Part shown: in pieces, positions 21,101 through 56,086 of the stretch
How positions within the stretch are numbered: the stretch's first letter is position 1
Layout of the letters: the number at the start of each line of letters is the position of its first letter
Program-made: the position numbers and the translations under genes
The notes under the pieces: model-generated
The model's input: the letters and a program-made list of their open reading frames with translations, nothing else
Database searches by the model: none
What the model was told of the DNA's origin: nothing
DNA from: Amoebophrya sp. A120
Lineage: Eukaryota; Protista; Dinoflagellata
Length of the DNA stretch: 59,014 nt
Assembly: GCA_905178155.1 (NCBI GenBank)
Contig: CAJINV010000004.1
Span: forward strand, 1,458,467-1,517,480
Reading direction: 5' to 3'

Positions 21101-24100
21101 GCATGACGAATCTCGCAATCTTCCAGACCCAGACATTTTTGCATTTGATAGTGCAGCACAACGAGCAAGTGTTTCGAGATTTCGTGCGGTCCAACACCTT
21201 GGCCAACGTAACAATTCCGAAAGAAGAGAAGGTGGTGGTGGTGCAGCAGTCGAAATACGAGCACGCCATCTACCTGGACTGCGCCCACCAACTGAAGGAT
21301 GACGCGAGCGCCGCGGGCGCCGGGGGCGGGGTGGCCACCAGCAGTATCATCTCGCTCAGCATGAACGAGAAGAAGCAGTTGCAGCAGGTGTCCCGGAAAT
21401 CCAATTCGAAAAAGGAGACGCTGCTAAAACTCTGCTCCCATTTCTTGCGCGACGACCACGGAGAGGGGGATCTGACCAAGAGCGACCAGGGCGAAACCGG
21501 CCGTATTAAGGATCGGTATCAAATGCAAAAATGTCTGGGTCAGGAAGAGTGCCAGGTTTGTCATGCATATTTTCCATGACCCATGATGTCTGTGATGCAT
21601 GCCCAAGCGTCAGAGATTCTGCGAGAGCTCCCTGATGCTCGTACCGCATGAGAAATTCTCTTTCCGCGTAGCAAAAGTGCATCTCTTTTGCCGTTCATGC
21701 AATACAGATCTTACGTAGAGTGCAACTGTAGCATCACAAGTTAAACCCTTCCAGACCCAGACATTTTTACATTTGATAATCGGAAAAAGGACGCGATCGA
21801 AGCGTGTCGGCGGACTATCACAGGTGAAAAAAAACTTCTGTATAAAGAAGTTCCGTGCTGACACTTTTCGCTTTTCCTTTTTGCATAATCGCGAGCATGT
21901 TGATCATGTGCATGACTAGATCCGGTTCGCGTGCGCGATCTGTTGACGAAGAAAATTCGCAGTTGGTGTTTGATGAACTATACGACGCCCTCGCGATGAA
22001 ATACAAAAAGCATTTTTGGGCCTTCTTCAAGAACTTTGTGCAATATGGATGTCAACACAGTGAAGTTTTTTGGCTGGATACAGAAGCTGCAGGACAGCTG
22101 CCGGAAGTTCGAAGCCTGTCTTCGTGGGTACATGATCACCCTGCAGGACACGCGAAACGAAACCAAGCGCGAGGAAATGAAGGACCAGCGCAGAGCCCGG
22201 CTGAAGAAATACTTTTTGGTATTATACCACCACTAGTATTTATTTACTTTTTTCGACAACTACAGGAACACCAGTTTCCCTATCGATTGTGTACGCTGTC
22301 TCTCGTTTGTCTTTGTTTCATTGAATTTCGTGACTGTAGTTTACTTCCGACATGATCTTCCCGCTCGGGGTATCTGCCTCCTGCAGACCCTTTCCAGAAC
22401 CGACATGAAATTTATTTGCGCAAAACACACAGCGGTACGGCGAAAGTGAGGAGGTGAAAACTGACGACGGACGGACGGTCCGGAAGCAGGCGCAGCCGGA
22501 GAAGGGCTCGGCGGAGGAGATCATGGCCACGGAGATTGTTAACGCGGCCAAGGATGACCCCAAGCACTTGCGGACCGACCGAGACGTAAACACGCTCGAA
22601 AAATTCCAAGACGCGGTGAACCACTACGAGGCTATCGAAAAGGAGGCCTTCGCCAAACTCCAGCGCGCCGTGCGTTATCCAAACGCAAAAGGTCTTCTTC
22701 TTCGTGTAGTTGTCTTATGGTGATCTTCGCGATGTGCAGCTTGCATGACAAACGTTCGCCGCTAAGAGCGAAATAATTTGTGATGCGGTCTGTCAACCTA
22801 GAGACGACTTTTGTGAAGGTGCATAGTTCCGACAAAATGTTTTTTGACGAGATGATGAAGGTGATGGAGAAGGACCGCTTCGAATGCGAAGCCTGCATGT
22901 ATGGAGTTCTCAAATGTTACATTTTCAACTGTATACACGAATTTATGATACAAACGCACAATCAGAATCGGCACGAGCAAGCTGCTTCGCATGACAAATT
23001 CTCGAAGCGCTAAACAGGCTCAGAATCTGCGCCAAACTTGTAATGCAACTGGCGCAATCTTCCCCTTTTCAGTTCTGTCATTCTTGCATCACAAGTTCAT
23101 GCAACAGTTGAGAATGTAACGGTTGAGAACGCCATAGCATGGACGAAGACTGCACGGAGGCCGGAATGTGGCCGTGCTCGCACTTCCTCTGCTACGACTG
23201 CGCCGTATGCATTGCAAATGTATCTGGGGCTGGTTTTGTGATGCGAAATCTGAAGGACAACAAGAACTGTAAAAGTGCACCATGGATGTTGAGTATTACC
23301 ACGGTGCTGGTCGTCCAACTTTTCTGTCGTGCTGGAAGCCAGTTTTTCGGTCGTTTTGCAAATAAGTATGCAATAACGAGCCTCGTAAAATTTCTGATGC
23401 TTTTAAGTATGCCGTGCAAGTGCAAGTGGCTACTCTGCTATGCGAGCGTCGCGAGCAACACAAATTTCCACACCTCCAGGGGTACTTATTTCCGATGTAT
23501 ACCTTGTGCAGCAGTGCAATCGGCAACAGGGCAATGCCCACGGCCCGACGTGCCCGAAGAGGTGTCCGGGGCACGTAAAGGCGAGCGAACTGTGCCGGCT
23601 AACGCTCGGGCGCAACGAGGCCGAAGAGTTGCTCGACAAGCTAGAATATGCATTGCAAATATGTCTGGGTCCGGAAAGAATGGGATTTGTGATGCTACCT
23701 TTGGACTCTACATAAAATCTGTATTGCATGAACAGCACCATAAGAGGCGCAATCTGTGCTACGCGGAGAGGGCATTTCTCATGCGGTATGAGCATCAGAA
23801 AGCCCTCGCAGAATCTCTGATGCTAGGGCATGCGTCACAGATCTCATGGGTCATGGAAAATCTGCATGACAAACTTCTGCATTCTTCCAGACCCAGACAT
23901 TTTTGCATTTGATATGGAAGACGACTCCAGTATCATCGGGAAGTACGGCTCAAAACTGAAGCAGATCGTGCAACTGCTAAAAACGAGCGGCGACGTGACA
24001 ACATCGTCCGGTGGAGGTTTTAATACAACAACCGGAGCTGCAACTGCAACGAATCCGAACGGAGCTGCTGCTGCTTCTTCTGTTGCGCCAGTAGCTCTTG

Positions 24101-25730
24101 GTGGAGCCGGCGGGAAAAAGACCAGTAATGGAACATCAAGTTCGATGTTCATTCCCGCGGAGGACAAGGTGATTCTCTTCGTCCAGTGGGAGGACCTGAA
24201 GCGGAAAATTGCCAAGGCCTTCGACGAATTCGGAGTGCCGCACCTCACCCTGCAGGGCACAACGCACCAGAAGAGAATCATTTTCGATAAATTTGCGAAG
24301 GACGACAAGAAGTACCGGGTTTTGATCCTCTCGATGGAAGACGCGGCGAGCGGGGCTAACCTGACCCAAGCGAATCACGTTTTCTTGGTGCATCCGGTAT
24401 GTGGGGGAAAAAAGAATAGCATATTTCGATCTTCAGTCATCATCGTCGGGTCGTGCAGAAGGTCCTAAATCGATACCCAATTGGCTGAATATCATTGCCG
24501 ACTCAAAATCTTCAGACAGAGTCAGAAGCTAAACTATCTCTTTGCGCTGTCGCGCACTCACCTGCTCGGACAAACGTGCTTGGCAAGATAGAAAAGAAAA
24601 AGATTTCAGTCTTTGTTTGCGCATTAGAGGTGAACAATATGCTAGCTTTTTTTTCCACTTCATATCCGTTTTTCGACGCGGAATCCGAGGAAAAGTGTTT
24701 GAATTACGAGAAGCAGGCGGTCGGGCGAGTGTTGCGATACGGCCAGAAGAAGCCTGTGAATATGCCATGCTCAGCGGGAACAAAAATCTGACCTGGAACA
24801 GTGTAGCGCGGAAATTTGTCTTGCATAATGTGCCGAAGCGGAGGGTGCGCCTTTCTGCTTTGCATGACAGGTTGTGTATCATTTTGATTTTCACTGCGAG
24901 TGCGAACCCAGCGATTTGGGGTTTCATAGGTTTGCTACGCGAATCGCAAAGACGCTTTACCGAGATTATTCGCTCTCTTCATCACAAATTGATGTTCCTG
25001 TCAAGACTTTCGTTCTGTCTGAGCGCGTCATAGGGAAGATCTGGCGTTTCGTGGCGAAAAACACAATCGAGGAGGAAATCCTGGTATTAAAATGAAAAAT
25101 GCCCCCCACCCCACAAGTTGGCAGCATTTGTATTGCAAACCTTTCAAAAAGAAACATTCCCCGTCTTGCATATATCAGCATCACAAATTTTTCACGCTGA
25201 AGAGCTCAAATTTGTATTGCAAAGAGCCCAACACCAGCCGGATCTCTTATGCAAAAGATGCCTTGCGTGCCTAGATTCTGCATTAGAAAGACTCGCAGTC
25301 CTTCCATGCAAGACAAAAAGTTTTCATTTGGAAACTTTGCATCAGAAACTTTTGCACATTCTGGGGTGGGGGCATTTTTCATTGCAATACCTGGAAGACC
25401 GGCGGAAAGCGGCTTCGGCGTCGCAAGAAACGGTCCCCGATGATCTGGGTTATCAAATGTAAAAATGTCTGGGTCTGGAAGATTCTAAACTTGTGACGCT
25501 GTCTCTGGATTCTAAAAAAATTTGTATTGCATGACCAGCAAAAGGACTCCAGTTTGTGCTACGTGGAGAGGGCATGTCTCATGCGGTAGAGGCATCACAA
25601 AGGCCTCGAAAAATCTGTCATGCTAGAGCATGCATCACAGACATCACGAGTCTTCCAAAATATGCAACACAAACCTGGCAAGCTTCCAGACCCAGACATT
25701 TTTCCATTTGATATGGGTGCTGGTGAGTAG
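12178..25730 (+). CDS. SNF2-family helicase/ATPase with C3HC4 RING (RAD5/RAD16/SHPRH-like), about 27 introns (26 introners, 1 GT-AG at 22219-22432)
   Basis: Reconstructed motifs: GGILNDQLGYGKT (I), TLVVMPPHLLAQWFEEI (Ia), FRRVVADELHE (II), YRWALSGTLPLQN (III), RING CEAC...PCSHFLCYDC...CPKRC, GSKL, KVILFVQW (IV), ASGANLTQANHVFLVHP (V), EKQAVGRVLRYGQ (VI), IWRFVAKNTIEEEIL. Confidence 0.92.
12968..13235. mobile_element. Introner family A
   Basis: TSD CCTGC/CCTGC; close relative of 53953-54214. Confidence 0.92.
13420..13698. mobile_element. Introner family B
   Basis: TIRs, TSD GGACT/GGACT. Confidence 0.92.
13870..14128. mobile_element. Introner family A (stop-free in host frame)
   Basis: TSD TGGCA/TGGCA. 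Confidence 0.9.
15064..15326. mobile_element. Introner family A
   Basis: TSD GGTGA/GGTGA. Confidence 0.92.
15368..15692. mobile_element. Introner family D (TATTGTGAGGAAAAATCCCCCCTCCCC)
   Basis: C-rich/G-rich TIRs, TSD CATCT/CATCT. Confidence 0.9.
15729..15912. mobile_element. Introner family G
   Basis: TSD CCGTG/CCGTG. Confidence 0.85.
16714..16975. mobile_element. Introner family A
   Basis: TSD TGGAG/TGGAG. Confidence 0.92.
17021..17236. mobile_element. Introner family H (TATCAGAG..GTACA)
   Basis: TSD TCAGT/TCAGT; related to 37844-38075. Confidence 0.87.
17389..17596. mobile_element. Introner family I (TATGCAAGCAAAAAACTG)
   Basis: TSD TCGGC/TCGGC, right end GATG. Confidence 0.82.
17829..18133. 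mobile_element. Introner family E (TATTAAAATGAAAAATGCCCCCACCCC)
   Basis: TSD TGCAG/TGCAA; near-identical to 25085-25389. Confidence 0.92.
18355..18652. mobile_element. Introner family D, directly after Walker A
   Basis: TSD GTTTG/GTTTG; GKTCL|MIGL. Confidence 0.9.
19529..19791. mobile_element. Introner family A
   Basis: TSD CCGCA/CCGCA. Confidence 0.92.
19834..20091. mobile_element. Introner family C
   Basis: TSD CCAGT/CCAGT. Confidence 0.9.
20175..20344. mobile_element. Introner family F (TATCCCACAGAAAAAAG), 170 bp, largely foldback
   Basis: TSD CAGTC/CAGTC; sister copy at 45112-45281. Confidence 0.9.
20567..20757. mobile_element. Degenerate introner
   Basis: TAT...ATA, TSD ACTAC/ACGAC, restores the frame into motif III. 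Confidence 0.75.
20912..21150. mobile_element. Introner family A
   Basis: TSD GTGCA/GTGCA. Confidence 0.92.
21517..21778. mobile_element. Introner family A
   Basis: TSD ATCGG/ATCGG. Confidence 0.92.
21816..22080. mobile_element. Degenerate introner
   Basis: TATCACAGG...GGCTGGATA, TSD CGGAC/CAGAA, frame CRRT|LQDS. Confidence 0.7.
22676..22819. mobile_element. Degenerate introner (right end eroded)
   Basis: TSD TGCGT/TGCAT, frame AVR|SSDKMFF. Confidence 0.55.
22900..23136. mobile_element. Introner, family C-like, inside the RING finger
   Basis: TSD GCATG/GCATG; CEACM|DEDC. Confidence 0.88.
23206..23501. mobile_element. Degenerate family A introner inside the RING finger
   Basis: TSD CGCCG/CCTTG, frame restored. 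Confidence 0.72.
23647..23914. mobile_element. Introner family A
   Basis: TSD TAGAA/TGGAA. Confidence 0.9.
24398..24664. mobile_element. Introner (old)
   Basis: Imperfect TIRs, TSD TCCGG/TCCGT, between motifs V and VI. Confidence 0.8.
24761..25032. mobile_element. Introner (old)
   Basis: TATGCCATGCTCAG...CTGAGCGCGTCATA, TSD GTGAA/GGGAA; KPV|KIWRF. Confidence 0.8.
25085..25389. mobile_element. Introner family E
   Basis: TSD CCTGG/CCTGG. Confidence 0.92.
25451..25713. mobile_element. Introner family A, 4 codons before the stop
   Basis: TSD TGGGT/TGGGT. Confidence 0.92.
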
Positions 25731-26844
25731 AAACTCTCAACCACGAGCGTTGTGAGGGCGACTGCCGGGGAGGGGAGACGAAACCCGAGACGCGGCAGGA
25801 TGCTTCGACAGGCGTACAGTTTTACTTTTATCACAGAAGAAGTAGTAAGTACGATATTGACTTCTTCGACTGCCAGGGAGTCGTATCGACATGCAAGGAG
25901 CGAATTTCTGTTTTTGCAGCCATGTTGAAGTTGACACACTACATGATGGTGAAGCCAAGGACTTTGGTGGAAACACAACAAGGAGTGAACCTCTACAATC
26001 AGTCATGAATGATTCCGATTTCGAACTTTCATTTGTTTTTTTGCGCGAGCAAATTGATTGCCTGCTTCCCCCCGGAAGATCCTCGTCCAACCAAAAGTAG
26101 TGCAACCGTTTTTTAGCAACGAACTGTGCGTCGTCTCCAGCTGCTGAGCTTGTGGTGAGGTGTTGAAGCTGTGTTTACTCAAAACCAGCTACACCCACAA
26201 GAAGTGACGAGAAAATGATCTTCGAGGCAGCGACAAAAACTATTACTCAGTCATCGATCTCCTTCCTTGGCACGACTCATACATCACAACTACGTGAGCA
26301 TCAAAAATAAACTGTCGTGACAACTGGCTTTCTGCTCGTCCGTCGATGGCGTATTCGTGCAGAAATGATACTTGAACAGATTCCGTGTAGTGTGTACAAC
26401 ACCTCTGCTCGCTCCTCGTCGCACTTCGACGTTCACCAAAATCGTTTCGTAAACAACGGATTTAACAAAGTGATCGTACTGGAGCTGTCATTTCGTTCGG
26501 ACCCATCGTCGCACAACTCCGGGCAAGATTTTGACCACGTCGTTTCGATTCTAGAACCGAAGGTCATTGATGAAAGTGGTCGTCTCCGTATATGGATTGT
26601 CATACCTTACCGAAGCCAAATCATTTCATTTTTCATCCATTAATTCCATGTCAACGACAGGAATTTTCGTTTTTTTCCCCGGGGAAATAAACCAAACACC
26701 ACGTCGTCGACCTCTGTGCCTCGGTGTACAGTGTAGTTCGAAGAAAAAGCTCAAAACTAGAAACAACCTAATTAGACCAAGCAAGCCTTGTTCGCTGCTT
26801 TGTTGTACTCTGGAGGAATAAACGAGGACAAAAAACCCAAAATC

Positions 26845-34433: not shown

Positions 34434-34778
34434 AAACGTTTTTCTTTTAGAAAAATCATGGAATAAGTAGATGAAGGCACGCAACTGTTTACAACAAGTA
34501 TTAAGAAAGAAGTTGTTACTTCTTCTACAAAAGGTCAACAATCCACCAAATCAAATGCCGCAGACAACAAGTTGTCGTGTTGCGTCTTCTGTTATTTGTA
34601 AAGGTTGATTAGTTTATCTCTATGATGATGGTGAAGCCGATCAATTTATTATTCGCCCGAGACGCGAATTATCTCGTTTTCGTTTTCCTAGTCAAATTTC
34701 GCCTTTATAGGAAATCAAGTAGGTTCTGGTTTTCGAGTTTTCGTAACGTACTGACAAGCTGCAAACTGCAGAGCACGC

Positions 34779-34900
34779 GCGAGCTGACGGACTGCGCAGC
34801 TGCGCGAGCTGACGGACCGCGAACTGCGCAGCTGCGCGAACTGACGGACTGCGAACTGCGCAGCTGCGCGACCTGACGGACTGCGCAGCTGCGCGAACTG
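34779..34900. repeat. GC-rich minisatellite
   Basis: Variants of GCGAGCTGACGGACTGCGCAGCTGC, about 4-5 times. Confidence 0.75.
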
Positions 34901-40785: not shown

Positions 40786-43700
40786 ATGCTTAAGAAGATG
40801 CACAATATCTTCCGCCTCCCCTTCCTCGCCCTGCTCCTGCCCCATGCGGTCCAGGCGGGTAACCCGGCCCTGGCTCTGGTAGACCATGCCAACCAGGTGT
40901 TGATGCTGGTGATCGTCTATCCAGTGCAAATCTGTCTGGGTCTGGACGGATGCAACTTGTGATGCTATCTTTGGATTCGAAAAAAATCTGTATTGCATGA
41001 CAGGCGAGACGAGGAGTCCAGGGTGTGCTACGTAGAGGGGGCATTTTTCATGCGTAAAGGGCATCAGAAAGCCCTTTAAAAATCTGTGATACTAGGTCAT
41101 GCATTACAGGCGTCATGGGTCGTGCCAAATATGCATGACAAGCCTGGCAATCTTCCAGACCCAGACATATTTGCAATGCATATCGTCGTGCTGCTGGGAA
41201 TCTTGGCGTTCAAATACAAGGACCGCGTCATTTGTGCAAGGAAAAAACTGTGTTAGTGATAGTTACTGTAAATCTGTAATGCAAAAAATGCACACCAGAG
41301 TTCTGAGTTCAGTTGACACGTGTTATTATCATGCCCGATAGATACCAGTAGAACTAGAAGTGATGAGCGGAGACTACGTGTGCTGATAGAGCATGCATCT
41401 TGTTTTGCTTTTATGCAAAGCGCGTTGGAATAAATGGAATTTGTGATGCTGCTGATCATTAAAATTAAAAGGAAAAACCAGTTACACCAACACAATTTTT
41501 TCCTGGATACTCGTTTTCTTTTCACGGGCGACGACCGGCTCCACGGAAACACGCTGGACGGCATCTGGTGGGGCTGCGCCCGCTGCTTCGGCGCCTGCGA
41601 CGGCACGTGGTCGTATTGTGAGGAAAAATCCCCCCTCCCCACATATTGAAAGCGCACGCTTCTAAAAATTTGTGATGCAGATGTGTGACCACACCCTCTG
41701 TGTTGCAAGAAGGCGAACCCAGAGAGTCCGCCGCATTATGCAGGCTGTTTGTGAGGCTGTTGGGCTTACAGCCTAGACGTTTGGCATGCTAGGCAACTAC
41801 GTCAAAACCTCTCGAGTCAGGCTTGGCATATGGTGCCTGCAGTCCTCTACTGCAAGACGATCTGACTTGTGTACGGAAATCCAGCATCAGCAACTTCGTT
41901 TCGATATGGGGAGGGGGGATTTTTCCTGTTGATAGGTCGATCCACGTGTTCGGCTTCAACGTGAAAAAGAAAATCGGCCAGTCCCTCGGCCTGGTCTCCA
42001 TCCCGCTGAAGATCAGCAATATCCGGGCGGGGGATCTCCCCTTCAAGGGCGGCGCGACGGGCGATTTTTACCTGATGTGCGAGTGCGGGTCCCACCCACC
42101 CATGATCACCTCGGTGCAGGAAAACGCCAGCCCGAAGGTGATATCAAGTGTAAAAGTGTCTGGCTCTGGAAGAGTTGGAACTTGCCATGCGGATTCTGGA
42201 ATGGGCAAAAATTTATATTGCATAAGCACCAAAAGCTTCTTGCTACGCAAACAGGGAATTTCTCATGCGGAATAGACATCAGGAGGCCTGCGCAAAATCT
42301 GTAAATGCTTTTGCGTGCATTAGAGACCAGTTGCGTGATCCAGAAGATGCATGACAAACTCCTGCAATCTTCGAGACCCAGACACTTTTGCATTTGATAG
42401 GTGATCACGTTTCCGGAGGAGCTGGTGCTGCGAATTCGGGACAGCCAGATGGAGGACAAGGTGCGGTTTGTGGTGAAGGAGGAAAATTTCTTCGGCTCGG
42501 ATATGACTTGTTCAAGCGTTACAATCTCAAACGTTACAATAGAATCTGGAATTTGTGTTGCATGGTGAGTATGACAGACTCGCAGACCGTTCCACTTTCT
42601 GCAATACAAATTTCGCCAGATTGTAGGGCGGTTTGGGGCTCCGGAACTTGTGATGCGCAATCCTATGCGAGTTGACTAGAAGATCATGCACTCTTGCATC
42701 ACAGATTTCCATATTCTATTGTGACGTTTGAGATTGTAACACCTGAGCGGGTTATATCGGAAGAGGTCGCCGAACTGGTAATCTCCGCGTCGGATATCAA
42801 ATGGGAAAAAAACCACGCCTTGTTGCAACATTGGTTCTTTCCTACAAATAAATCCTCTTGTTTGCCATGGATACGGATAGATGGAGTCAGTCTAAAGAAC
42901 TTTGCGTCCTCGTGAAGGTGTGCACATGCAAGCGGGCCGTGTTTGTACTGCGTTCTTGCACTGCCACTGTCTACGTAAAACTTATTGGATAATAAAGCGC
43001 GCGCAACATCATCAATCTGACCAGCGTTTAGCTTTATTGACTTTGCAGTTTTAGCATGTAGTACAACTTTGCCGTTGCTTGGTACACTGCCGGGGTTTAC
43101 AACGGTCGCAGGATTTATGTTGCAGCAAATCCCATCTTTTTTCCCCCGATACCGGATGTTTTCAATCTGATCTACGACCACGAGGCCAACCACCCCGGAA
43201 AGCCGATAATAAAACGGTTCAAGATGGAGCCTTCAGGTACTTACTTATTTATTTATAGATACGAGGTTGCATCCAGCCTCCACAAAAAAGATAGAAACTC
43301 CAATTCGTTTTCTTGATTTCTCATGCTATGAAAACAAAATTTCTAAAGATCGCAACAACGACTACGAAACGCCGGCTTGGCTGATTCTAGAGTTTTCGCA
43401 GGATTTCGATTCTGCACTCCGTATCGATCATGAAGAAGCTAGCGTAGGAGCGATTTTTTTTGCTACCACCCTATGCAGAAATGAAAATTTGTCGTATCCG
43501 CTTCCGCATGATCCCGCCGCGAAAAGGTCTCTCACGCGCTTACACAAGAGCCGCCTCCCGAGGGCCGGTCTACTCAGAGTGATGAAATTTTTGATTTTTG
43601 TGTGGATCCACTAAACATATAAACGCTTGTCGTGCTAGCTTTTTCCCACCGGATTTTGCGTAAAGTGTCCGAGGAGCCGGCGCACCGTGCAACTGTGACG

Positions 43701-46700
43701 CTGATGGACCGGGGCACTGGGATCTACCGCGACTACGATCCTTCCGAGCTGAAGGAGCAGCCGGAGTTCCAGCTAATCGACACGCAGGGCCGGGCGGTCA
43801 CCGAGCCCGCCGAACACATGCTGCAGGAGATACGCGCTATCCTCTGGGGGAAAATAAAGTATTGTTGAAGGCGCCGGCGTATACATGATGCGTACAAGAA
43901 TTGCAAGAGCGTACTTGGCCTTTACTGATGCAGCAGCGCATCAGGCGACAAGGCACAGCACTGTCTACATCATTTTGGATGTTGGAAAACAGTTCTGCGG
44001 CTAGATTTGGCTCTCTTGTGTGCGCGGCGGGAAGAAGGTACAACATTTTTTACACTGCATACACCCGATGCGATCAAAATTCCGTTTTCGCCGAAGAATA
44101 GTGGCCGCCACAATCATTCTCATCATCGTGGGTTACGCTGGGCTCAGGTACAGTTCTATGAATCGATTTTTTTATTCGGTCGCTTTTCGTTTTCTCGGCC
44201 ATCCCCAAGGTAGCGAAAAAAAAAGAAGAAAAAAAGGTTCTACGTCTGGTCGTGTTACCGCCAGTTCAAGGTGCTGGAAATGGGTATGCGTCGTAAATAT
44301 GTCTGGGTCGGAAACAAGATTGCAAGATTTGTTGTGCCTGTCTGACATGGCTCGGAGGTTCGTTGTGATGCCTGTGCACGAAGGAAAGCACGCGTCATTC
44401 GTTTTCTGTCATGCAAACTGATGCAATTTCCTGTGCGGAATGCGCAAGGGCAAGACCCAAGGCCGAACTTCTTATGCTTCGCTGCCTTTAGCACGCGCTC
44501 ATCTTCATTCACGTCCTTGTACTTATTGAAAGTGTCCAGACCCGGACATATTTGCGGTTGATAGTGTGTGTGCTGTCAGACAAGAAGTTCCCCATGACGG
44601 CGGCGGAAATGAAAGAAGTACTTACTTACGAGGTTTTCACTGTTTTGAGTAGTTGAAAAAATCCACTTCCACAAGAAAACCACGAGGCAACTGTGGTGAG
44701 TGTGAGCATCGTTGTCGTGTGTGGAAAAAACCTTCGAGAAATATATAAACCACACGCAGTATGGAAACGTCAGGTTTGAAATCGTCAAAGTTGAAATAAT
44801 TTGTAATGCATAAAATGCATGACCCGAGGTACGTGCGTTGCAGAGCAGGCAAGTGAGGCCGATTGTAAGCCTGTTTGGGGTTACAGCTCGAGCTGCTAAA
44901 GTAGCATGAGAAAATCGCTCTTCTTTGCCTAAACAGCACGACAAACTGGATTTAAGGGCCGCCAAGATTTGTCATGCGCCACTTGGAAACTGGGTTCCAA
45001 CTGGCATCCATTTGATGCATGACAAATTATTTCAACTTTGTCGATTTCAACTCTGACACATCCACACCCAGCTCCGGCAAGACTGCTCGACCATGACCAC
45101 ACCGGAATGCGTATCCCAGAGAAAAAAGCTGGCAGGGCATGTTTGTAATGCCAAAATAAATACACAGAAAAACTTCTCATGGGTGGCCCTATAGCATGCT
45201 GTTTCGGATATGCAATGCAGATTTTTTGTGTATTTCTTTTTGCATTACAAATATGCCCCTCCCGCTTTTTTCTGTGTGATAATGCGAGCCGAGCGAAGAC
45301 CAAGTCCTGCAGACGTGTATGGCTCCGCCGGTAGGCCAAGCGCGGCCCCATATGCATTGCAAAAGCATCGTACCAGTAGGAATTGCAAATGCAAGTAGTA
45401 TTCTATTATACAAATTAGCTCAGCATGCAATAACAGAGGGAATTTAAGTATTTGTCATGCTTGGAAAAAAGATGATTTGTGGTGCATAACTGGGACACGA
45501 TCACTACAAGAACGATACTCTTGCACTGGATACCCCGGGCGTTCCATCAACTTTGGCACGACTTGCTGGGATTGGACGTGTCCGCGGCCCTGACGCTGCC
45601 CTGCTTCCACGGGGTCTGCAAGCTACGCTCGAAGCTACGCATTGTAAATATCGATCTGTGTCTGGAATAAACTTGTGTTGCTGAAGATACTCGCGCCGCG
45701 GAGTAGTCGCTTGTATGGACGAATAATCGCATGATCACAAGTTTTGCGAGGCTCATTCCGAGATTGATTCGTCATGCGCATAAAAAAGTAGGTTCCGGCG
45801 AGGCAAAAAAGCGAGCGAGACTTCTTTTCATCCATCACAGAAGATGTTGCTGTCCTTGAAATCTTGCATGAGAAATTTACACCCAGATGACTACAGATTC
45901 GCAATGCATATAATCTGGCGGAGTACGATTTTCAGGCTGTTTTGATTGTGGTCGGCCTGATTTTCGGTGCGGTGCTCTACAACGATATCGTCAAGCAGCA
46001 AATGCTATCGGATAGATGCAAAAGTCCTTTTGGTGTCGTTGCATGACAGACTTCCAGTCTTTTACGTCGTTTCTGCATAATGGCACATCCTGCTATGAAC
46101 AAAAACATTTGTACTTTTGCACTGCATAGACCCGTAACAAGCAGCACGAAATGGTGACCGCCATGTCGCCAGGGCACTCGCCCATGCTATCGCACGAAAA
46201 AAGTGTCTTGAGCGTGTGATCATGCGGGGGAAGTTAGATCGCACAACAGCATAGAACTTGGAACAGCTCTGGTCTTTACCAAAAAGTTCTTATGCAGTGC
46301 CTGTTTTAAATAACAATGATGATGATCACAGGAGGAGAAAAATCTCTTATTTTTTTTCGTGCGATACCGAAACCGAATGCAGCAATCTATGGTGGTCAAT
46401 TCCTACGGCGGCGGTCTTATCCTTTATAAAAACGTCCCCACCTCCCCATGGTCAAGTCGGAACCTTTGCGAACACAAATCCAGAAGTTTTGGGAGTCACG
46501 CATGACAAGTTTTGCACTGTAATACTGTAGTGCAGGATAGCAAGAAAAGCCGCATCACAAATCCATCCCCTTTTCCTGTTTGCAGAATTACAAATTTCGA
46601 AACTGCACGACGGACGAGAGACGCCACTTGTGTGGATGCGCACTAGCAACGTTCCTGTGCGCCGTGGAAATCTGCATGACACCTACTATGGTCGTGTGGG

Positions 46701-47208
46701 GACGTCTTTACACAGGAGACGCCTGGACGGCTACGGTGGCTATGCGGGTGGTCCAGAGACGTCCAAGACCAATCAGAAAGTGGTTTACAGTCCCGTGCTA
46801 TCCAAGGAAAAAAATGTGCTTTTATTTCAACATTCCCTGAGTTTGACTTTGATGCATGATTTTTTGCACGGCGTGGAATATTAATCTCCGGTGTTTCCAC
46901 GCCCATGCGGCAGGTTGGTTTAACGCGACTGAGGACGTCGATTAGGCGTGGTCATGATTCACCTGATCCTCTCAGCTTTCCGCTCACAGTGCCTCGACGC
47001 ACTGTGTCTTTTTTTGTGGCAGATGTGAGTAGTAGAGATTGTTTTCGGTAGAAAAGAAACCAACTTGTGGACTAGTAAAGTAAGGACATAAAGAAATACA
47101 TGCAGTCTTTTCCTTCGATAATCTCTACAGCAGCAGATGGCCGCTGCGCAACGGAACCCAGGGAGCACACCATTTTTGCCGCCCGCGGGGGGTGGGGCGT
47201 ACAACTGA
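40786..47208 (+). CDS. Multi-pass membrane protein with probable C2 domain, about 16 introners plus 2-3 GT-AG introns (43237-43348, 44148-44236)
   Basis: Signal-like N-terminus, TM VLMLVIVVLLGILAF, C2-like LKISNIRAGDL...DFYLMCE...ITFPEELVLRI...VRFVVKEENFFGSEEVAELVI, two further TM segments. Junction at 44618-44745 is unresolved. Confidence 0.72.
40918..41182. mobile_element. Introner family A
   Basis: TSD TCGTC/TCGTC. Confidence 0.92.
41233..41509. mobile_element. Introner family I (old, starts TGT)
   Basis: Imperfect TIR; RVI|FLF in frame. Confidence 0.7.
41614..41934. mobile_element. Introner family D
   Basis: TSD GGTCG/GGTCG. Confidence 0.9.
42142..42399. mobile_element. Introner family A
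   Basis: TSD GGTGA/GGTGA. Confidence 0.92.
42502..42756. mobile_element. Introner family C
   Basis: TSD TCGGA/TCGGA. Confidence 0.9.
42795..43151. mobile_element. Degenerate introner
   Basis: TSD TCGGA/CCGGA. Confidence 0.72.
43422..43655. mobile_element. Degenerate introner
   Basis: TATCG start, eroded right end, ALR|KVSE in frame. Confidence 0.55.
43838..44061. mobile_element. Degenerate introner
   Basis: TATCC...GCATA, flanks CGCGC/CACCC, frame restored. Confidence 0.65.
44285..44563. mobile_element. Introner family A (diverged)
   Basis: ATGTCTGGGTC/GACCCGGACAT TIR core, flanks ATGGG/GTGTG. Confidence 0.82.
44760..45066. mobile_element. Introner with long distinct TIR
   Basis: GTCAG.TTTGAAATCG.CAAAGTTGAAATAATTTG inverted at both ends; TSD CGCAG/CCCAG. 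Confidence 0.82.
45112..45281. mobile_element. Introner family F
   Basis: TSD ATGCG/ATGCG. Confidence 0.9.
45351..45532. mobile_element. Introner family G
   Basis: TSD CCCCA/CCCCG. Confidence 0.85.
45636..45910. mobile_element. Degenerate family A introner
   Basis: Flanks GAAGC/TAATC, frame restored. Confidence 0.72.
46006..46366. mobile_element. Degenerate introner
   Basis: TATCG...CGATA; element+5 restores the frame. Confidence 0.6.
46418..46719. mobile_element. Introner family B (diverged)
   Basis: AAAACGTCCCCA TIR core; flanks GGTCT/CGCCT. Confidence 0.82.
46799..47120. mobile_element. Degenerate introner
   Basis: TATCCAAGGAAAAA...TTTTCCTTCGATA; frame restored to stop at 47208. Confidence 0.68.
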
Positions 47209-48287
47209 GGATGATCGTAAGTCTGCTTAGTACTTATCTTATGGACTCGCTTCAACAAGAATAAAAGAAGATTACATTACGAGCGTGTCAGTATATAATG
47301 AAAGTTCCACCTGTCTGAATAAACCGCCAACACACTGGACTCCCGATTGCAATTTCGTTGCTGCGGGAGCAGCGCTGCACATTTTCCACCAAACCGTCAG
47401 AGGAGTGCACTAAAGCGTCCCAGTTTCAACAGCTTCGATTTCCAGTAGCTGTGGCCGACGTAATACTTTTGCTCCTCTACTACTTACAAGAACGGCAGTT
47501 GTCACACAGGACTACGACATCGAATGCTTTGCAAGATTTTTTAGACAGTGGCGGTCAAGTAAGTAGAAGACGCGACTTAGGCGGGGGCATGAGCGAAACG
47601 AGAGTGGTCTTCAGATGAAACGGAACAAAAAATGCGTACAACATTTTGTCCACCGCGACCTCCAGCTCCAGCAGCAGAGCTGTTGAACTTGTTGATCAGC
47701 ATGTTCGAGGATTTGGGCATTTGAGCAGGCTCAACAAATGAAACCGGATGCACTTGATTGCCGTTGAATATACTTTCATCTTTGCATTGAATTCATCGGC
47801 AGAAAAGGAAAGAGCGAGGGTGAGAAGATCAAGGCAAAATAATGACATCAAACAGCTATCCTGCAAGAAACGGGATATTGATTTGTTGCGTTTCTGTTGT
47901 GATATACCCCCTAAATAAGGAGGAAAGTGCGTGCTGTGGACGAGCGCCGGGGCTTTACTGCTGTAGTTGCGGTGGATGCAGCGGTTGATGCACAGCTTGG
48001 AAGATGTGCATCTTATTGGTCGTTGTTCTTCAAAAAGGCATGAGATCTAAGTAGATGGATAGATGGTTCTTAAAGGAGGAGGAGCGAAGCCATCGTCGTT
48101 TCTTATCTTTGAAGTGACTTTGCTGTGTCCTTTTGGCCGGGGCGGCCGCTGCTTCTCTGAAACAGTTTCTAAATTGTTTTCCGTCGGAACAAAGAAGATT
48201 CTGTCGTGAGTTGTGATACTCATATTGGGACAAAAGAAAAAGTAAGTGGCCTGACCACTAACGCCTGGTCACCAAAAAGTTTTAAAC

Positions 48288-51200
48288 ATGAGCTCGCGAG
48301 GAGGTACCGTGTCAGGAGGTGTTGGGGAAGCTGGTAAGGGCACTTCTGGCGCGGGTGGGAGTAATTACACCGCCCCAACGGGGCCAGCAGACGCGACCAC
48401 GACGATGCCAGCGATTGTCGTGCCGTTGCAGACCGTTGCAGTTATCGGGAGGGGGAAACAACGAGGAGCATAACTACAACCCATTGTCTTCAACTACACT
48501 TTTTCGTGTGAGTAAGCGCATGGATTTATTTTTTTGCATTCCAAAAAGTTTTTGTTTTGCAAAAATTTTTGCTTCCGTTTTCCTCAAGACAAACACAAGT
48601 ATACTTTCACCTTCCCGGTGATTGCTTTCCCGCGCTGGAAGCGTAGCCACGACAGATTAATAGAAAGTGACTATTGTAAAGACGATCACTGCGGGAATTG
48701 CACTTGGGTGCTTTAGAAATTTGTTTTTCCCCCATGATAACTGCAACCGACCACCAGCAGGATCAGCATTCCAGTGCGCAACATCATGCAGTCGGTTGCT
48801 CTGGTGCTGAAGCAGACAGGGCTACCCCTTCATCCTTCGCTTCCAACAGGACACCAACCGCGTCCTCAAACCCTGCCGCCAGCTCCTCTGCGTCTGCGAG
48901 AAGCAGTGGGAAGGCCACGAAGAGCAAGAGCAAAACGAAAACGGGGGCGAACAAGGTTTCTGTCAGCGCTTCGGAGGTGGTCGTTTTGGACGAGCCTTTA
49001 CGGCAGTCGGAACAAGCAGGTGGTGCGTCGTCCTCGAGGAGTGGCATTGCAACAGGAGGAGGACACCGCAATAAAGCTGCAGCCGGCAGCACCAGCACGA
49101 CGGGGGCACCGCAACAGCACAGTACTAGTGGCAGCAACAACCAGCTGGTTCCTGTGGCAGACCAGCAACAGCTGGAACTACACGCGACGCGCAGCAGTTC
49201 GTCCAGTTCGGGCGGCGCGCGGGGCAAGCCGAGCTCCTCATCATCAGCTTCCTCATCTACCAACGCAGCCGCGCAAATGAATTACCAGCAGTTGGTATGA
49301 TCGTGTGGGAAACATAAAGTGTGTCAATGCCCAGACAGTGCAAGAACATGTTATGGTTTATTGTTCGGACTGGCAGCATGTTGGCAAGTTCATTCTGCAT
49401 GATGACAGAGAAATATTAAGCCTGGCCTGTCTAGCTAGTAGAGTCAAAACGGATGATGTGAAAAAAGAGGACTTCAACATGGCTGTCCGGTATGACAAGT
49501 GTGAAGATGCTGTTGCATGATCATGCTAGTTCGCATTGCAACACCCTTTTTTTCGTTCGGACACTTGGAAACGTTGCACCAGCTTCGCATGGATCAGGAC
49601 ATTTTAGCGAGAGGATTGACCGAACTCGAGGACCAGTTGCACCACCGACTTTCCGATCTTGCTGAAGAAACGGAGCGGAACGCGAACTACCACAAGGCTC
49701 TGGAGAAAGCGGTGCAGCAGTTTGGGCAGCGGCTCCACCAGAGCAGTACTTCTATTGCGAACGGTAGTTGTAGTACTTCTTCTTCGGCGACAGCACAGCA
49801 TCAGTTGGACTACAGCAGCAAGCATGCCCAACACCTGGAGCACCTGGAGCAAATGTGCCAACAAACCGTGGCCGACCAGGACCATTTGCACGCGCAGATG
49901 CAACAGTTTGCCGACGAACAAGACCGCAAGTACGACCAGCTGTCCCTGCAGCTACAGCACGTCGTGCAGGAGCAGCGGCAGCTGCAGGAGCAGCTCGCGG
50001 CGGCGGTACTTGCGGCGCAAGGAGCTCCGGCGGCGGTGCACCAGAACCGCGACCTCGGGGACGTTGACCAAAAGTTTTTGGGGACGAGCAGCGGCTCCTC
50101 CGCAGAGATAAAAGAGAAAGAAGCACACCTAGTACTACGCTCGGAGGAGCCCGAGCAGGAAAGTAGAAATCAAGGAGAGCATGAAGCAGCAGCTGCTAGT
50201 ACTATCGGCCACGAGAAGCGTATTGTGGATCTGGAAAAGCAAGTAGCCGCGATGTCGGAACTCTGCCAAACGGTACTGCAAACGATGTCGCTATCAACTG
50301 TAAAAATGTCTGGGTCTGGAAGAATTCATGTCTGTCATGCTTGTCTGGCATGACTCTTAAATCTGTCATGCACGTTACCCAAGAGCTCCGTTTTTCTGTG
50401 ATGCAGAGCCGCAGTTTGTCATGCAGAATAGGCAACACCTAGGAGCTCAGAAACTTGTCATGCTGAGCCAGTATTCGTAGCCTCATCATGAGACGCCACC
50501 CAGCATCACAAGTTTCCAGACCCAGACATTTTTATTTTTGATAATCGCAGCAGATGCGCGATTTGCAGGGCAAGTGGAAGAAGCGCGACCAGACGTTTGA
50601 CCTGCGGCTACATATGCATTGCAAATATAATTTATGTCTGGAGGTGGAGATTTGTGATGCTGAACTGTGGATGATGAAAACACTATCGTGATCGTGAATT
50701 ATGCAGACAAGCATGACAAGTTTGCAGAACGTTTTCTCCTACGCAGTCCGCATGAGATGACACTGCGTTTTCCTATGGCGACTTTTGTCGGTCCTGCAAT
50801 ACAGATTTCACACCAAAAATGTACGACCAGCATTTTTACAAGTTCCAACTTTATTCCAGACCCAGACATATTGTTTGCATTTGATGCTGTAGGAGTTCGC
50901 GCAAAAGGTCGAAACCATAGAGACCACGGTAGCGACGTCTTCGGACGTTCTTTTCCGCCAAGGCGATATTAACACTCTCGGTAAACAACAGCCACGAGGA
51001 CCCGGTGAAGAGCCAGATCGCTCCGCGGAATTGGTAAGGCCAGGGTCATCATCCGCTGCTGCGGCTGCTTCAAGTAAAAACACCGAGCAGGTCACCATGG
51101 TTTCTCCTTCCTCGGACCTACAGAAGGTAGAACACGGGTTGCGGGATGAGCTCTCGCACGTTCATGCGGACGTGCAGGAAAAAATTCAGCGGTTGCAGCA

Positions 51201-54200
51201 GCACATGAACAAGCTGGACCAGAATAGCCGCAGCTCCCTGCTGCAGCTGAGTGAGATGTGCGACCAGAGCATTCGTCGGGCCGTGGAAAAAGTGGTGGCC
51301 ACCGAAGTGGAGCCGTGGCGCAAGCAGCTCGGAGAGAAAACCCAATTCGATCTAGACCGTTTTGGGGACCTGGAGTGCCGTGTGCTGCAGGTAGAAAAGT
51401 ACGCAAGGAAAAAACTACTGCATCAGTGTAAGTACGTTGGTCTGTGTTCTTGCAGAGGACGATGCATAACGCCTACACTCAGCATGCTTGATGTGCGCCG
51501 TCACAGTCAGGCTAAGGCTATTTGATTTTCCTATGTTTTTTTTCTCTTTTTTTCACACGCTCACCACTCATGACAGGTCACGCGAAACAAGACATTTGTG
51601 ATGCTGCTGATCCAAAAAAATCAAAAAAGCTTTGTATTGCTTCCGCTAAGACAGTTTTTTTTTCCGGTATGAAAACAAAGTTACGTGCACTGGCGCCGTT
51701 GGCAAGACCGACGTGGAGGCGAGCACAACTAGAGAGGCAGCTGCCAGCACCTCCACAAGGGCAACTATCCTGAGTAAAAACGTACCCACACCAGAGTCAG
51801 GATGGGGATTTTGCAACACAAGCCTAAGAGTTTTGTGAGTCACGCATGACAAGTTGCACTCTGCAGTGTAGTGCAGGTTAGCAAGTGCAGCCGCATCACA
51901 GATTCATCTGCTCATCCTGTTCACAGCATCACAAACTCCAAAACACGACTGGAATTGGCTCTCATGGGGATGCGCATTACAAGTCTTCCTGTCTTTGCAA
52001 ATCTGGATTACAACTCTGGTGTGGGTACGTTTTTACTCAGGATAGCAACTTCACTTCTGCAAGATCAACTCGGCGACTTGGCGAAGCGCTTCCAGCGCCT
52101 GGAAAGGTAGAGAAAATTCGCTAGCTCAGGAACTGGGCGAGCTGCTGGCTTTTTATTGCAGAGTGCTTGCGTCGTGTACATGGTTCTATGTATCATTTTG
52201 AGCATTTTTGTTGCGCAACCTTTTCTGTTTGTTACATTTTTTCAAAACAAGTCCACACAAAAAAAAATCACGCAGCTCCGTGGGCGATTTTCGGTCCTCC
52301 ATGACGGAACCCAGACTAGCCAGATTGGAAGCCGTCCTGCTGCACGGTGGCGGAGCTACAGAAGTGTCGGCCGCATCAGGACCCGTGGGCAGAAAAGATA
52401 AAAGCCTCGAGGAGCGCCGGCCAGGAGGTGGTGTTCCAAGCTCACCCGAAGACCAAGAAGATCTCCCTGCTTGTGCCAGCAGCCCGCCTGGTGCGGGTCG
52501 TGGGGCGACCGCGTCTGTAGCAGACACAACCGGTGGAGGTCACCAACGCCAGAGAGATGTTGAACAAGCTGGCGCTACATCACCGAGCGGCGGTTGTTCA
52601 TCCGCTTCGTCTTTCTCTGTTAAGAGCGGTCGGATTTGGGAGAACAAGCTGAGTCGCTTGGAGCACCGCTTGGTCGCTATTGCAAGGAAAAATCTTCCCT
52701 CCCGGGGTCCCCATGTTGAAAGCGCATTCCTCCGAAAATTTGTCATGGTGAAGATTTGTGACCACAAATTGCGTCTGGCTTGCAAGAAGGCAAGAGCAGA
52801 AAGTCCGCCGCGTTTTTATTTTATGCAGGCGGTTTGTGAAGATGCTGTTGCGGCCTACAGACAAGACGTCTAGCATGCTAAGTGCCTCCGTCAAGTCATT
52901 CCGTTCCAGGCACTGCAGCTGCCTGCAATCCTTTACTGCAAGACACAGCTGCGTTGTGTACCCAAATTCCGCGCCACAAACATTTCTATTTTGATTATGG
53001 GGAGGGGGGACTTTTCATTTTGATGGTCGCGCGTCTGACGGAACTGGAGACCAAATGCGCAGCGTTTTTGGAGAGCGACGACTTCGGGTCTCCGCAAGTG
53101 GAAGATGGTGTAATCGACCAGCAGACTTGTTCCAGAACTGGTTTGAGAATGGGACCAACTTCCACAAATAATGCCGGGGGGTCGCAGCACAGCAAGGTGG
53201 TCAGCCGCCGCGGGCTCGAGCAGCGACTCTCCGCCGTTGAGCAGACGGCCTATGCATTGCAAATATGTCTGGGTCTTCTGGAAACTCGTGATGCAAGTGC
53301 TCGATGGATATGCAAACAAAGCTGCGCGCTGATGTTGCAATACGTGGCCAGGCATTGCAAGTACTTACTAAAGTAGTTTTCGAGCTACTGCTACGTTTAG
53401 CGTGTTCCTCATAGCAAGCTACCTTTTTGCATGCCAGGCAAGATGTTGAGGATGTTCTAGCGCATAAGCATCACAGAATTCCGAACATATGCCAGATGAG
53501 CATAAAGAAAAAGAATAGTCATTTCTTTTCAATAATCTTCCAGATCCAGACATGTTTGAAATCCATACGGCGACGGAGGCGACCAAACGGGCGGAAGCGC
53601 GGCTGCAGGAGAAGGTGCAGACTATGCATGGCAAATGTGTCCTCCTCTGCGTTTGGATATCCGTTTATTCGTTCATTTCTGTGTGGCGACCAGATCTGTA
53701 TTATGTGTTTATACGTGTGCATGAGCAGGAATTATCGCGAGTTATGTTGTCACTCTGCAACGAGCCAGCTTCTTTTTTGTTTTTCATGCGATTATTTACG
53801 AATTGAACTTATATATGCGGTGCAGCAACTACAAAACGCAGTTCTGATGTGGTGCAAAACTCAGCGAATGGAAATGCTTCGCTGTACTATGTTCTGTCCA
53901 AGCCAGCACTATGTTCTGTCCAAGCCAAGACATGTTTGCAGTGGATACAGACTATCAAATGTAAAAATGTCTGGGTCTGGAAGAATGCAACTTGTGACGC
54001 TGCATTTGGATTCCAGAAAAATCTGTGTTGCATGAGTACCAGATGGAATGTAATTTTTGCTACGCGGAGAGGGCATTTGTCATGCGGAATAGGCATCAAG
54101 AAGCTCTCAAAAAATCTGCGATGCTAGGGCATGCATCACAGACATCAGGGCTCATGCAAAACGTGCGTGACAAGTGTCAGAATCTTCCAGACCCAGACAT

Positions 54201-56086
54201 TTTTGCAATGGATACAGACTGCTCTAACGCAAAAGGCCGAGGAGCTCGAAGCAAGAACCAGGGAGGGCCTACAGTACATTCATAGTTTTTTGCGCATGAA
54301 CAAGTAAGAGCTAGACATGAAAGTGAACCAAAACTACAAAATTGTAGAATTGAACGCTTGATGACAAAGCAAGGTGGTACTTGTTGTTTTCTCACCGCTC
54401 AACATCCTCTTCAAATGTGTTTTCGTTCTATATCTTTAGGCACTTAGAGGACGAGTTGCGCGTGTTGCTGGGCTATGAATTGCAAATGTGTCTGGGTCTG
54501 GAAGGATGCCAGATTTGTCGTGCAGGTTTTCCATGACCCATGAGGCCTGGTATGTAAGACATAGCATGACAGATTCTGTGAGTGTTCTATCATGCCTATC
54601 CTGCATGAGAAAAAACCGCCTCTCGATTGGCTCAAAAGTGGACAGCTTTTGGTAATCACGCAACACAGAATCTTACATGATTCCGTGATTAGCATGACAA
54701 CTTGCAGCTTTGTTCCAGACCCAGACTTTTTTGCATTTGATATGGGCGAAAGCGTGCAGGCCGACCTGGAGCGGAGAACTGTGGCATTGATCAGCCAAGC
54801 GGAGCGTCGCATCCTCGAACAGCAGGAAAAGGCACTGGAAGCGACGTTCAAGAAGGCTGAAAATTATAGTTTGGCAACAACAAAAATGAGCGCGCCAAGT
54901 CCGGGAGAAGTGGGGACAGCGGCGACAGAAATGGTCGTCCAACAGGAGGTATCAAATGCAAAAATGTCTGGGTCTGGGAGATTGCGAGATTTGTCATGCT
55001 AGTCTGGCATGACTCTGAGCTCTGTGTTGCATGGCCGCGAAGAGCTCCTCCCCCCTGTCATGCAAAAACGCAGTTTGTCATGCGGAATACGCAACTCAGA
55101 ACCATGAAAAAAACTTGTCATGCTTGGCAGCGCATCATAGTGAGTTCACTATTCCTTTTCTTGCATCACAAGTTTCCAGACCCAGACATATTTGCAATGC
55201 ATAGGAGGAGTTGCAGCGTGACGTGCGCAGTATGGAAACGCGGCTCTATCACAGGGAGAAAAGCATTTTTACATACAGCTGCTAGCATGGGATTGATTTT
55301 GCATGATAGGAGATACAAACCTGCTTCTGGATTTATTGTGTGCCGGTCTATTATAGTTTAAGCATATGATTATCCCAACCTGCTGTAGTTGTACTGTGGG
55401 GCGCTTTTCTCTCTGGGATAGGCTCGAGGATTTGGTCTTGCGCCTGTCCGCGCTGGAAACGCAGGCGATTGCGAGGATAAGCGACTCGGGCATCGCAACT
55501 GGTGGTTCTTTTGCTGCTCCTGCAGCGCCAGAAGTGGATCACGACGCTATGGTGAGGAAAAATCCCCTCTCCCCATAGATAATATTGAAAATTGATGCTT
55601 CTGCAAATCAGTGCTTCTTATTTGTGGTCACAAATCCTGTGTCTGTCTTGATGGAAGAGAGCAAATCCAAAGGGTGCGCCCCATGTTCCATGCGATCTGT
55701 AATGCTTTTGCGCCTCCAACTGCACTCCAGGCTCAGGCCACTGCTATACGAAGAGCCTACACGACGACGACCAAAACGCCCCAACAAAGCAGGCTCAGTG
55801 AGTCTCCGCCTGCAGAAGCTCCTCACTGGTGCGCGTGTACAACAAATCGCGCTGCACAGATTTCGCGTTGACTATGAGCCAGGGGCTGGATTTTTTTATA
55901 TTTCCATAGCGTTCCTTGCGAGCAAAGTCCTCGCTCTTTCCGGAAATGCAATTCCGCCGCCGGCAGTGCGCGAGGTGGCTTCGCGAGTGCAGCAGGACGT
56001 TCTCGCAGAGGTGCAGCTGGTTTTGGGCGACCAGATTCGGCAGCACAGCCGGGACCAGGCAACGCGGGTGGTGCACACACGCATGG
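48288..56086 (+). CDS. Large coiled-coil/low-complexity hypothetical protein, 3'-partial or disrupted; 15 introners plus GT-AG introns 52107-52275 and 54274-54439
   Basis: Heptad-rich exons (LTELEDQLHHRLSDLAEE, LEQRLSAVEQTA) join in frame from ATG 48288 to the interrupted element at 56087. Confidence 0.75.
48443..48739. mobile_element. Degenerate introner
   Basis: TATCGGGAGGGGGAAAC...TTTTTCCCCCATGATA; frame restored. Confidence 0.7.
49296..49563. mobile_element. Degenerate introner
   Basis: TSD GTTGG/CTTGG. Confidence 0.65.
50292..50543. mobile_element. Introner family A (reverse complement of 1-252)
   Basis: TSD GTCGC/ATCGC. Confidence 0.92.
50613..50886. mobile_element. Introner family A (diverged)
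   Basis: Flanks CTACA/CTGTA. Confidence 0.8.
51400..51671. mobile_element. Introner family I (old)
   Basis: Flanks AAAAG/AAAAC, frame restored. Confidence 0.65.
51766..52044. mobile_element. Introner family B
   Basis: Perfect TIR, TSD GCAAC/GCAAC. Confidence 0.93.
52678..53025. mobile_element. Introner family D
   Basis: TSD GTCGC/GTCGC. Confidence 0.87.
53251..53567. mobile_element. Introner family A (diverged)
   Basis: TSD CGGCC/CGGCG. Confidence 0.82.
53623..53947. mobile_element. Old introner, first of a tandem pair
   Basis: TATGCATGGCAAATGTGTC...GACATGTTTGCAGTGGATA, TSD CAGAC/CAGAC. Confidence 0.83.
53953..54214. mobile_element. Young family A introner, second of the tandem pair
   Basis: TSD CAGAC/CAGAC. 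Confidence 0.92.
54474..54742. mobile_element. Introner family A
   Basis: TSD TGGGC/TGGGC. Confidence 0.92.
54950..55203. mobile_element. Introner family A
   Basis: TSD GGAGG/GGAGG. Confidence 0.92.
55247..55420. mobile_element. Introner, family F-like
   Basis: TATCACAGGGAGAAAAGC...GCTTTTCTCTCTGGGATA, TSD GGCTC/GGCTC. Confidence 0.85.
55548..55908. mobile_element. Introner family D (diverged)
   Basis: Flanks diverged; HDA|LASK in frame. Confidence 0.78.

Follow-up and report, generated by a model that had tools for sequence, protein, structure and literature searches.

How is an intron cut out of a transcript when its ends carry neither GT nor AG? In Amoebophrya more than 60% of the introns are reported to lack GT-AG ends, and U1 was not found (PMC7789003). 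We examined a stretch of 59,014 nucleotides (nt), the window, from contig CAJINV010000004.1 of Amoebophrya sp. A120. The host assignment agrees with the exons of the window, which match the database proteins P0001 and P0002, both source-named A120, at 100%. The window is rich in intronic transposon-like elements, and we asked where the cuts fall relative to their ends. The fixed cut rule described here, 1 nt before and 4 nt after the element, was not found in the literature text that was accessible; the elements themselves (PMC7789003) and an analogue with 3+5 spacers in Euglena (PMC12501133) are known.

Introner elements in five genes

A scan for inverted ends of the form TAT...ATA with 5-nt flanks found elements resembling miniature inverted-repeat transposable elements (MITEs), dense in five co-oriented genes (+ strand). 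By position counts, each end has a terminal inverted repeat (TIR) beginning at TAT, about 7 variable bases and then an A-run. The A120 introners have been described as having TAT-starting inverted repeats of 8-20 nt, about 7 variable bases, an A-run and direct repeats of 3-5 nt (PMC7789003). Judged by their inverted repeats, A-run and direct repeats, the elements of the window are these known introners. The curated set holds 66 elements, all within the five genes. Outside it stand 4574, 5586 and 5969, which lie beyond the reading frames, one element truncated by the window start, 56087, whose right end is beyond the window, and the ambiguous 43472; the last is counted in statistics with n=67 and left out of those with n=66.

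The target-site duplication (TSD) is a perfect 5-nt match in 35 of the 66 elements, matches at 4/5 in 15 and at 3/5 or fewer in 16. The families are multi-copy, with 42 of 67 elements having an internal relative in the window and 25 being singletons there. Elements with a close relative among those of the window tend to have the better TSD match (Spearman 0.56, p=8e-7, n=67), which supports the first-pass annotation of this stretch in calling the elements with mismatched flanks old.

One cut position fits every RNA-placed intron

Cut positions were read from contigs of runs guessed to be RNA, aligned over 36600-56400 (15 of 48 joints listed) and 20400-25084 (15 of 74 listed). These contigs behave as mRNA, since they skip GT-AG introns too. 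Cover of the window consists of contigs, which conceal minor isoforms; the raw-read runs X8 and X9 gave 5 and 3 reads. In total 22 introns were placed, 16 by listed joints and 6 by record coordinates together with the ends of contig pieces. In five of the latter (21517, 21816, 22676, 37175 and 38228) one end was inferred from a shared gap of 34, 133 or 288 nt, and the 1+4 rule fills these gaps exactly. Set aside were the listed joints 41641-41797, 42756-46471 and 55086-56132, which start or end in or at multi-copy elements, and likewise nine joints seen only in run X5 at multi-copy elements, putatively from contigs of other copies.

The removed length is exactly the element plus 5 nt in all 22 introns. 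The claim that deleting this length restores the frame thus holds as an exact length, beyond modulo 3. Let k be the number of flank bases that stay in the intron on its 5′ side. All 22 introns fit k=1, compared with 16 for k=0, 12 for k=2, 10 for k=3 and 7 each for k=4 and k=5. Offset 0 is excluded by 6 introns and offset 2 by 10, and the only cut common to all 22 lies 1 nt ahead of TAT and 4 nt past ATA. At three introns k=1 is the sole option: 46188 from a direct joint, 22676 and 37175 from pieces. Were placements random among the six that remove +5, one shared offset would arise with P ~5e-7 for the 22 introns and 1e-4 for the 16 listed joints. Bases 1-4 of the upstream TSD copy and base 5 of the downstream copy are exonic. 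Of the 5-nt ruler first proposed, the constant offset stands; the single 5-nt count is replaced by 1 nt on the 5′ side and 4 nt on the 3′ side. A constant offset had been suggested as the thing to look for at mismatched junctions, and beyond the 22 it is also found at 55548, where P0002 permits offset 1 only, while 48443 permits offsets 1-4.

Repeat homology does not set the cut, in agreement with the earlier proposal: 22676 has a TSD match of 0/5, and 46188 and 37175 cannot be slid. Nor do the cuts track cryptic GT/GC and AG dinucleotides, the outcome that was to have refuted it. None of the 22 introns can be slid to GT/GC..AG, and an in-frame cryptic GC..AG at offset 4 of 22676 is bypassed.

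Introns with mismatched flanks

The individual introns, all on the + strand, bear out the rule where the TSD has decayed. At intron 21815..22084 (element 21816-22080, flanks CGGAC/CAGAA) the contig pieces leave a 34-nt exon and resume at 22083, a skip of 270 nt (265+5); offsets 1-3 are allowed by the contig pieces and by P0004 alike. For intron 22675..22829 (element 22676-22825, TGCGT/GTTCC) three runs have a piece ending at 22674 and the 3′ end, inferred from the 133-nt gap, permits offset 1 only; P0004 allows 0-1. Intron 23205..23505 (element 23206-23501, CGCCG/CCTTG) has a listed joint, 23204-23506, in runs X1, X2 and X4 that is absent from X5. Over this decayed intron there is also one unspliced X1 contig, 23177-23535, with a depth of 8 versus 65 spliced, and it may reflect retention, pre-mRNA or DNA. 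For intron 37174..37433 (element 37175-37429, CAAAA/CAGTG) X1 and X4 each have a piece ending at 37173, the 288-nt gap agrees, and P0001 is obtained with offset 1 only. At intron 38227..38447 (element 38228-38443, AAGTG/CTACG) a piece resumes at 38448, permitting offsets 0-1, and P0001 allows 0-2.

Six mismatched flank pairs had been highlighted initially. Five belong to one element each (21816, 37175, 38228, 48443 and 55548). The sixth, AATGC/CCGAA at 46006, was mis-paired, joining the left flank of one element to the right flank of the next. There are two introns: 46005..46132 (element 46006-46128, AATGC/GACCC), with the listed joint 46004-46133, a skip of 128 nt (123+5) and offsets 0-1, and 46187..46370 (element 46188-46366, CATGC/CCGAA), whose listed joint 46186-46371 is unslidable and exactly 1+4. 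In contigs of two runs guessed to be RNA, the two are spliced out separately, around the 54-nt exon between them. The merged site kept the frame because 54 is a multiple of 3.

Intron 48442..48743 (element 48443-48739, GCAGT/ACTGC) and intron 55547..55912 (element 55548-55908, GACGC/GCGTT) have no usable RNA cover and are placed by identity with P0002, which fixes +5 with offsets 1-4 at the former and is reproduced by offset 1 only at the latter. Bin 47837-48497 has zero cover in all four runs.

Agreement with database proteins

Splicing with k=1 yields P0001 (376 aa) and P0004 (2211 aa) in full and P0002 residues 1-1147, identical. The SNF2/Helicase_C gene (Pfam; 12178..25728, +) has 26 TIR introns and one GT-AG intron. 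Its 2211-aa model was made before P0004 was fetched and the two are identical, so the rule rebuilt a 27-intron gene ahead of the database protein; any other uniform offset gives 1-6 wrong residues relative to P0004. The EF-hand gene (36994..39394, +), with 5 TIR introns and 376 aa, equals P0001, and the gene part at 48288..56085 (+), coding for 1147 of 1652 aa with 14 TIR elements and 2 GT-AG introns, equals P0002 residues 1-1147. From joints and frames, the gene at 40786..47208 (+) has at least 15 TIR introns plus GT-AG introns; its 12 listed joints comprise 10 at TIR elements and 2 GT-AG, and segment 43237-43667, taken up below, lies within it. A protein search with exon 2766-3254 of the first gene gave no match, and the six elements of that gene are therefore placed by frame alone. 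The three proteins probably come from RNA-based annotation of the same genome. Such an origin makes them independent of the 1+4 rule, not necessarily of RNA. Against an RNA joint or a protein, 55 elements were checked with no exception; 11 elements stand on frame alone.

Bases and pairing at the intron ends

Under 1+4 the terminal bases of the 66 introns are free. Position +1 is C21/G19/A14/T12, and positions -1 to -4 are mixed. The adjoining positions are nearly invariant: on the 5′ side T stands at +2 in 66/66, A at +3 in 65/66 and T at +4 in 64/66; on the 3′ side A stands at -7 in 66/66 and T at -6 in 64/66, and -5 has A in 62/66 and G in 4/66. Each of the four deviations at -5 replaces A with G and preserves a U-G pair. 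Ends are degenerate at 17389, 41233, 49296, 50613, 51400 and 52678 (ATG or ACA for ATA; TGT or TAC for TAT), where +5 still fits. The first downstream exon base in 17 decayed elements is C6/G5/A3/T3. At offset 1, GT..AG occurs in 2/66 introns, and GT/GC..AG can be written at some offset in 7/66. In A120, 15% of the 'canonical' introns have been reported to contain repeats (PMC7789003), and such writable elements may explain some of that share. All six canonical introns of the window begin GTA, so T+2/A+3 of the TIR introns stands in the canonical donor register, a likeness missing from the first-pass annotation.

The arms remain paired where the TSD is decayed. In elements with a TSD match of 3/5 or less (n=17), pairing is 0.90 at positions 1-3 and 0.57 at positions 4-10 versus 0.33 with swapped arms (permutation p=0.0005), and mean TSD identity in this class is 0.39 with a background of 0.26. 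Predicted arm duplexes have -12.9 kcal/mol for cognate versus -6.8 kcal/mol for swapped arms, and -0.1 to -3.4 kcal/mol in canonical introns. In-register folds are predicted for 56/66 elements, and 4/16 old elements fail to fold in register. Arm pairing thus outlasts the TSD and may be simply inherited from the TIRs. As TAT/ATA is near-invariant, reading of the motif and reading of the stem are inseparable in these data, and the earlier proposal that structure and not sequence is read, with a likeness to tRNA/IRE1-type cleavage, is a hypothesis on this evidence. Three further patterns were considered and rejected: a stem running on through the TSD (-1 and +1 are complementary in 5/16 of the old and 9/35 of the young elements), a bias of intron length modulo 3 (19/23/24) and special keeping of TSD position 5 (0.64 vs 0.56-0.64 in singletons).

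Removal at the RNA level

Run X5 is of unrecorded kind, has even depth across introns and is possibly the source of the assembly. Its contigs are unbroken over 20567, 21816, 22676, 23206, 24398 and 24761, and the six listed RNA joints are all absent from it; contigs prove the presence of a form, not absence. In the main family, k=4 is excluded for forward copies at 23647 (clearly) and at 44285 and 23206 (weakly), and for reverse copies at 50613 (clearly) and 45636 (weakly). Exclusion in both element orientations means that the asymmetry goes with the direction of the transcript and not with that of the element, within five genes that all lie on one strand. Removal acts on RNA and excision from DNA is contradicted, in line with the initial annotation, which had argued against homology-based excision.

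It is very unlikely that the direct repeats instead drive excision from DNA or skipping by reverse transcriptase. The spliced runs are guessed to be RNA, and template switching is possible at hairpins flanked by repeats. Such events would nevertheless have to produce joins without microhomology (the listed joint at 46188, and 22676 and 37175 from pieces) in contigs that skip GT-AG introns as well, and to account for the elements kept in X5 and for offset 4 being excluded whichever way a copy points. Somewhat less remote, though still improbable, is that the rule is local or partial, with 1+4 the commonest cut for TAT elements and cuts varying elsewhere in the genome. According to the Figure 3 legend of PMC7789003, the placement of splice sites with respect to the hairpin varies, and Figure S23 of that paper gives 1-5 nt. 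Our joints are those listed (15/48 and 15/74) in five genes, where contigs may hide minor isoforms, and segment 43237-43667 has two readings. Yet the 55 checked elements are without exception, and intact TSDs make 35/66 junctions slidable over 0-5, which alone yields an apparent spread of 1-5.

Candidate catalysts: a remodelled spliceosome or an endonuclease

The 1+4 geometry, the free bases at the cut ends, independence of TSD sequence and dependence on transcript direction are established. That a fixed 1+4 ruler operates, whatever the catalyst, is very probable. For the whole statement, that the count is made at the RNA level by a remodelled spliceosome blind to terminal GT/AG, we estimate a probability of about 0.5. 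The sum 1+4 equals the 5-nt insertion duplication, and the arrival of a new copy, whichever way it points, would leave the mRNA as it was before. After insertion, the intronic TSD bases would drift, whereas indels in the spacers would shift the frame and be purged. The paired inverted ends would draw the two sites close to each other, replacing recognition by U1 and U2AF; U+2/A+3 may dock at the place of the canonical GUA donor, and the invariant A at -7 may be the branch nucleotide from which the 3′ cut is measured. A branch A near the 3′ end is found in tiny-intron protists and in group II introns. A remodelled spliceosome is favored because of the donor-like register, the invariant A-7 and the precedent of Fritillaria, where the U2 spliceosome processes MITE-derived non-GT/AG introns (PMC13326754, PMC11282704). 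In A120, nearly all spliceosome proteins and U2, U4, U5 and U6 are reported (PMC7789003). Table S4 of the same paper gives T at +2 in 9/9 top A120 non-canonical classes; in strain A25, 9/9 classes begin TT and the repeats start TTA, suggesting TA at +2/+3 in both strains.

Several observations weigh against a spliceosome. Positions +1, -1 and -2 are unconstrained, with AG ends in 4/66, and these are bases that the second step of the spliceosome normally uses. The stem occupies the very bases that U6 and U2 would need to pair, and the six canonical introns share no A at -7. The branch motif YTRAY occurs in 6/66 TIR introns and in 2/6 canonical introns, and is hence uninformative. Sliding of boundaries by annotators may bias the Table S4 classes, no excised intron was seen in the contig cover, and Euglena, the closest geometric analogue, releases full-length circles, not lariats (PMC12501133). 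Segment 43237-43667 must lose 351 nt and strains the rule on either reading, as a GT-AG intron followed or preceded by a 1+4 intron whose ends are degenerate (CAT..GTA), which breaks both invariant bases, or as a GT-AG intron plus a TAT element losing +6, which breaks the +5 rule. It may be an exception.

The same 1+4 ruler could belong to a non-spliceosomal endonuclease that reads the TAT/ATA hairpin end, cutting both strands at fixed offsets with a net 3-nt 3′ overhang, after which a ligase joins the exons, a scheme proposed for Euglena nonconventional introns and raised in the first-pass annotation. This is a serious possibility, although we hold it to be less probable than a remodelled spliceosome. 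It would account for the free terminal bases, for arm pairing that outlasts the TSD and for a stem occluding the U6/U2 pairing bases, and in Euglena fixed 3-nt and 5-nt spacers have been tested and the excised introns are circular (PMC12501133). On the other hand, it makes the likeness of T+2/A+3 to the canonical donor a coincidence, and the enzyme is a purely putative candidate for which no search was made. The pairing itself, seen among the elements of this window, may be inherited; picking the old class by TSD decay inflates the contrast, and 4/16 of that class lack an in-register fold.

Whatever the catalyst, a single register makes boundaries described as 'variable' readable as a code open to mutation, with T+2 and A-7 as the bases of interest. 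The register separates lariat from circle models and makes the splicing machinery testable. The tolerance of these transposons in exons is explained by the 1+4 rule, and the fixed cut likely explains the scarless loss of insertions. More tentatively, the window may exemplify a second GT-AG-independent nuclear splicing pathway that counts 1 and 4 from the TAT/ATA hairpin end, independent of the 3+5 of Euglena and scarless for any exon, phase or orientation, which would explain tens of thousands of intron gains.

Other features of the window

Elements 4574-4785, 5586-5864 and 5969-6155 lie outside long reading frames (untranslated region or intergenic), two of them with perfect TSDs; 5586 and 51766, which point in opposite directions, share 94% identity. 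Copies 17829-18133 and 25085-25389, inside one gene, are 98% identical, a sequence identity pointing to very recent local spread. Two long stretches, 6156-12177 and 25714-37174, are without strong TIR pairs, and part of the latter reaches up to 62% GC. The AT-rich stretch 22219-22432 was considered as a degenerate element and rejected, being a GT-AG intron. At 53623-54214, tandem elements have a common middle CAGAC; 1+4 makes their introns abut with a zero-length exon, and all 597 nt are removed according to P0002. At 56086-59014 a family-type left TIR (G then TAT) starts an intron of more than 2.9 kb according to P0002, whose other 505 residues lie beyond the window. Inside this intron are a 531-codon open reading frame (56251-57843), for which Pfam gave no hits, and short tandem repeats at about 58480-58880.

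Comparison with known systems

The closest system is that of the A120 introners, with the same organism and elements, non-GT-AG ends and RNA-supported removal (PMC7789003). Removal from transcripts with non-GT-AG ends was found here too, in runs guessed to be RNA. In the text and legends of that paper the distance of the splice position from the hairpin is described as variable or unknown, whereas here it is fixed at 1+4; the register outlives loss of the direct repeats, and several old elements would fail the direct-repeat criterion used there. The graphics of its Figures 3 or S23 may already hold a peak at these offsets. No fixed Amoebophrya offset was found in accessible text, including the text covered of PMC12130899, PMC12621601 and PMC12787238; subscription papers were outside the search.

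U2 introns have a GT/GC donor and an AG acceptor, unlike the TIR introns (GT..AG in 2/66, none of 22 slidable). The tRNA-intron endonuclease and IRE1-XBP1 cut where RNA structure, not GT-AG, dictates, on few substrates. No bulge-helix-bulge or twin seven-base loops are evident here, though none were sought, and we draw no tie to them. The non-GT/AG introns of Fritillaria borealis are likewise MITE-derived, with TIR and TSD, and dominate the genome; they have preferred termini (AG-AC, AG-AT) and an intact U1, whereas the introns studied here have free termini and no U1 was found in A120 (PMC13326754, PMC11282704).

The nonconventional introns of Euglena likewise have a MITE-like origin and paired ends; their spacers are fixed in length and free in sequence, the longer one lies on the 3′ side, and GT-AG introns occur in the same gene (PMC12501133). 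Paired ends, a euglenid feature, are predicted here from duplex energies and 56/66 in-register folds. Euglena is an unrelated lineage with CAG at +4..6, CTG at -8..-6, 3+5 spacers and a purine opening the downstream exon. Here the motifs are TAT at +2..4 and ATA at -7..-5 with 1+4 spacers, and there is no such purine preference. Full-length circles were seen in Euglena, whereas the A120 introns are known from contigs and sequence. Amoebophrya stands beside Euglena as a second lineage for ruler-type splicing.

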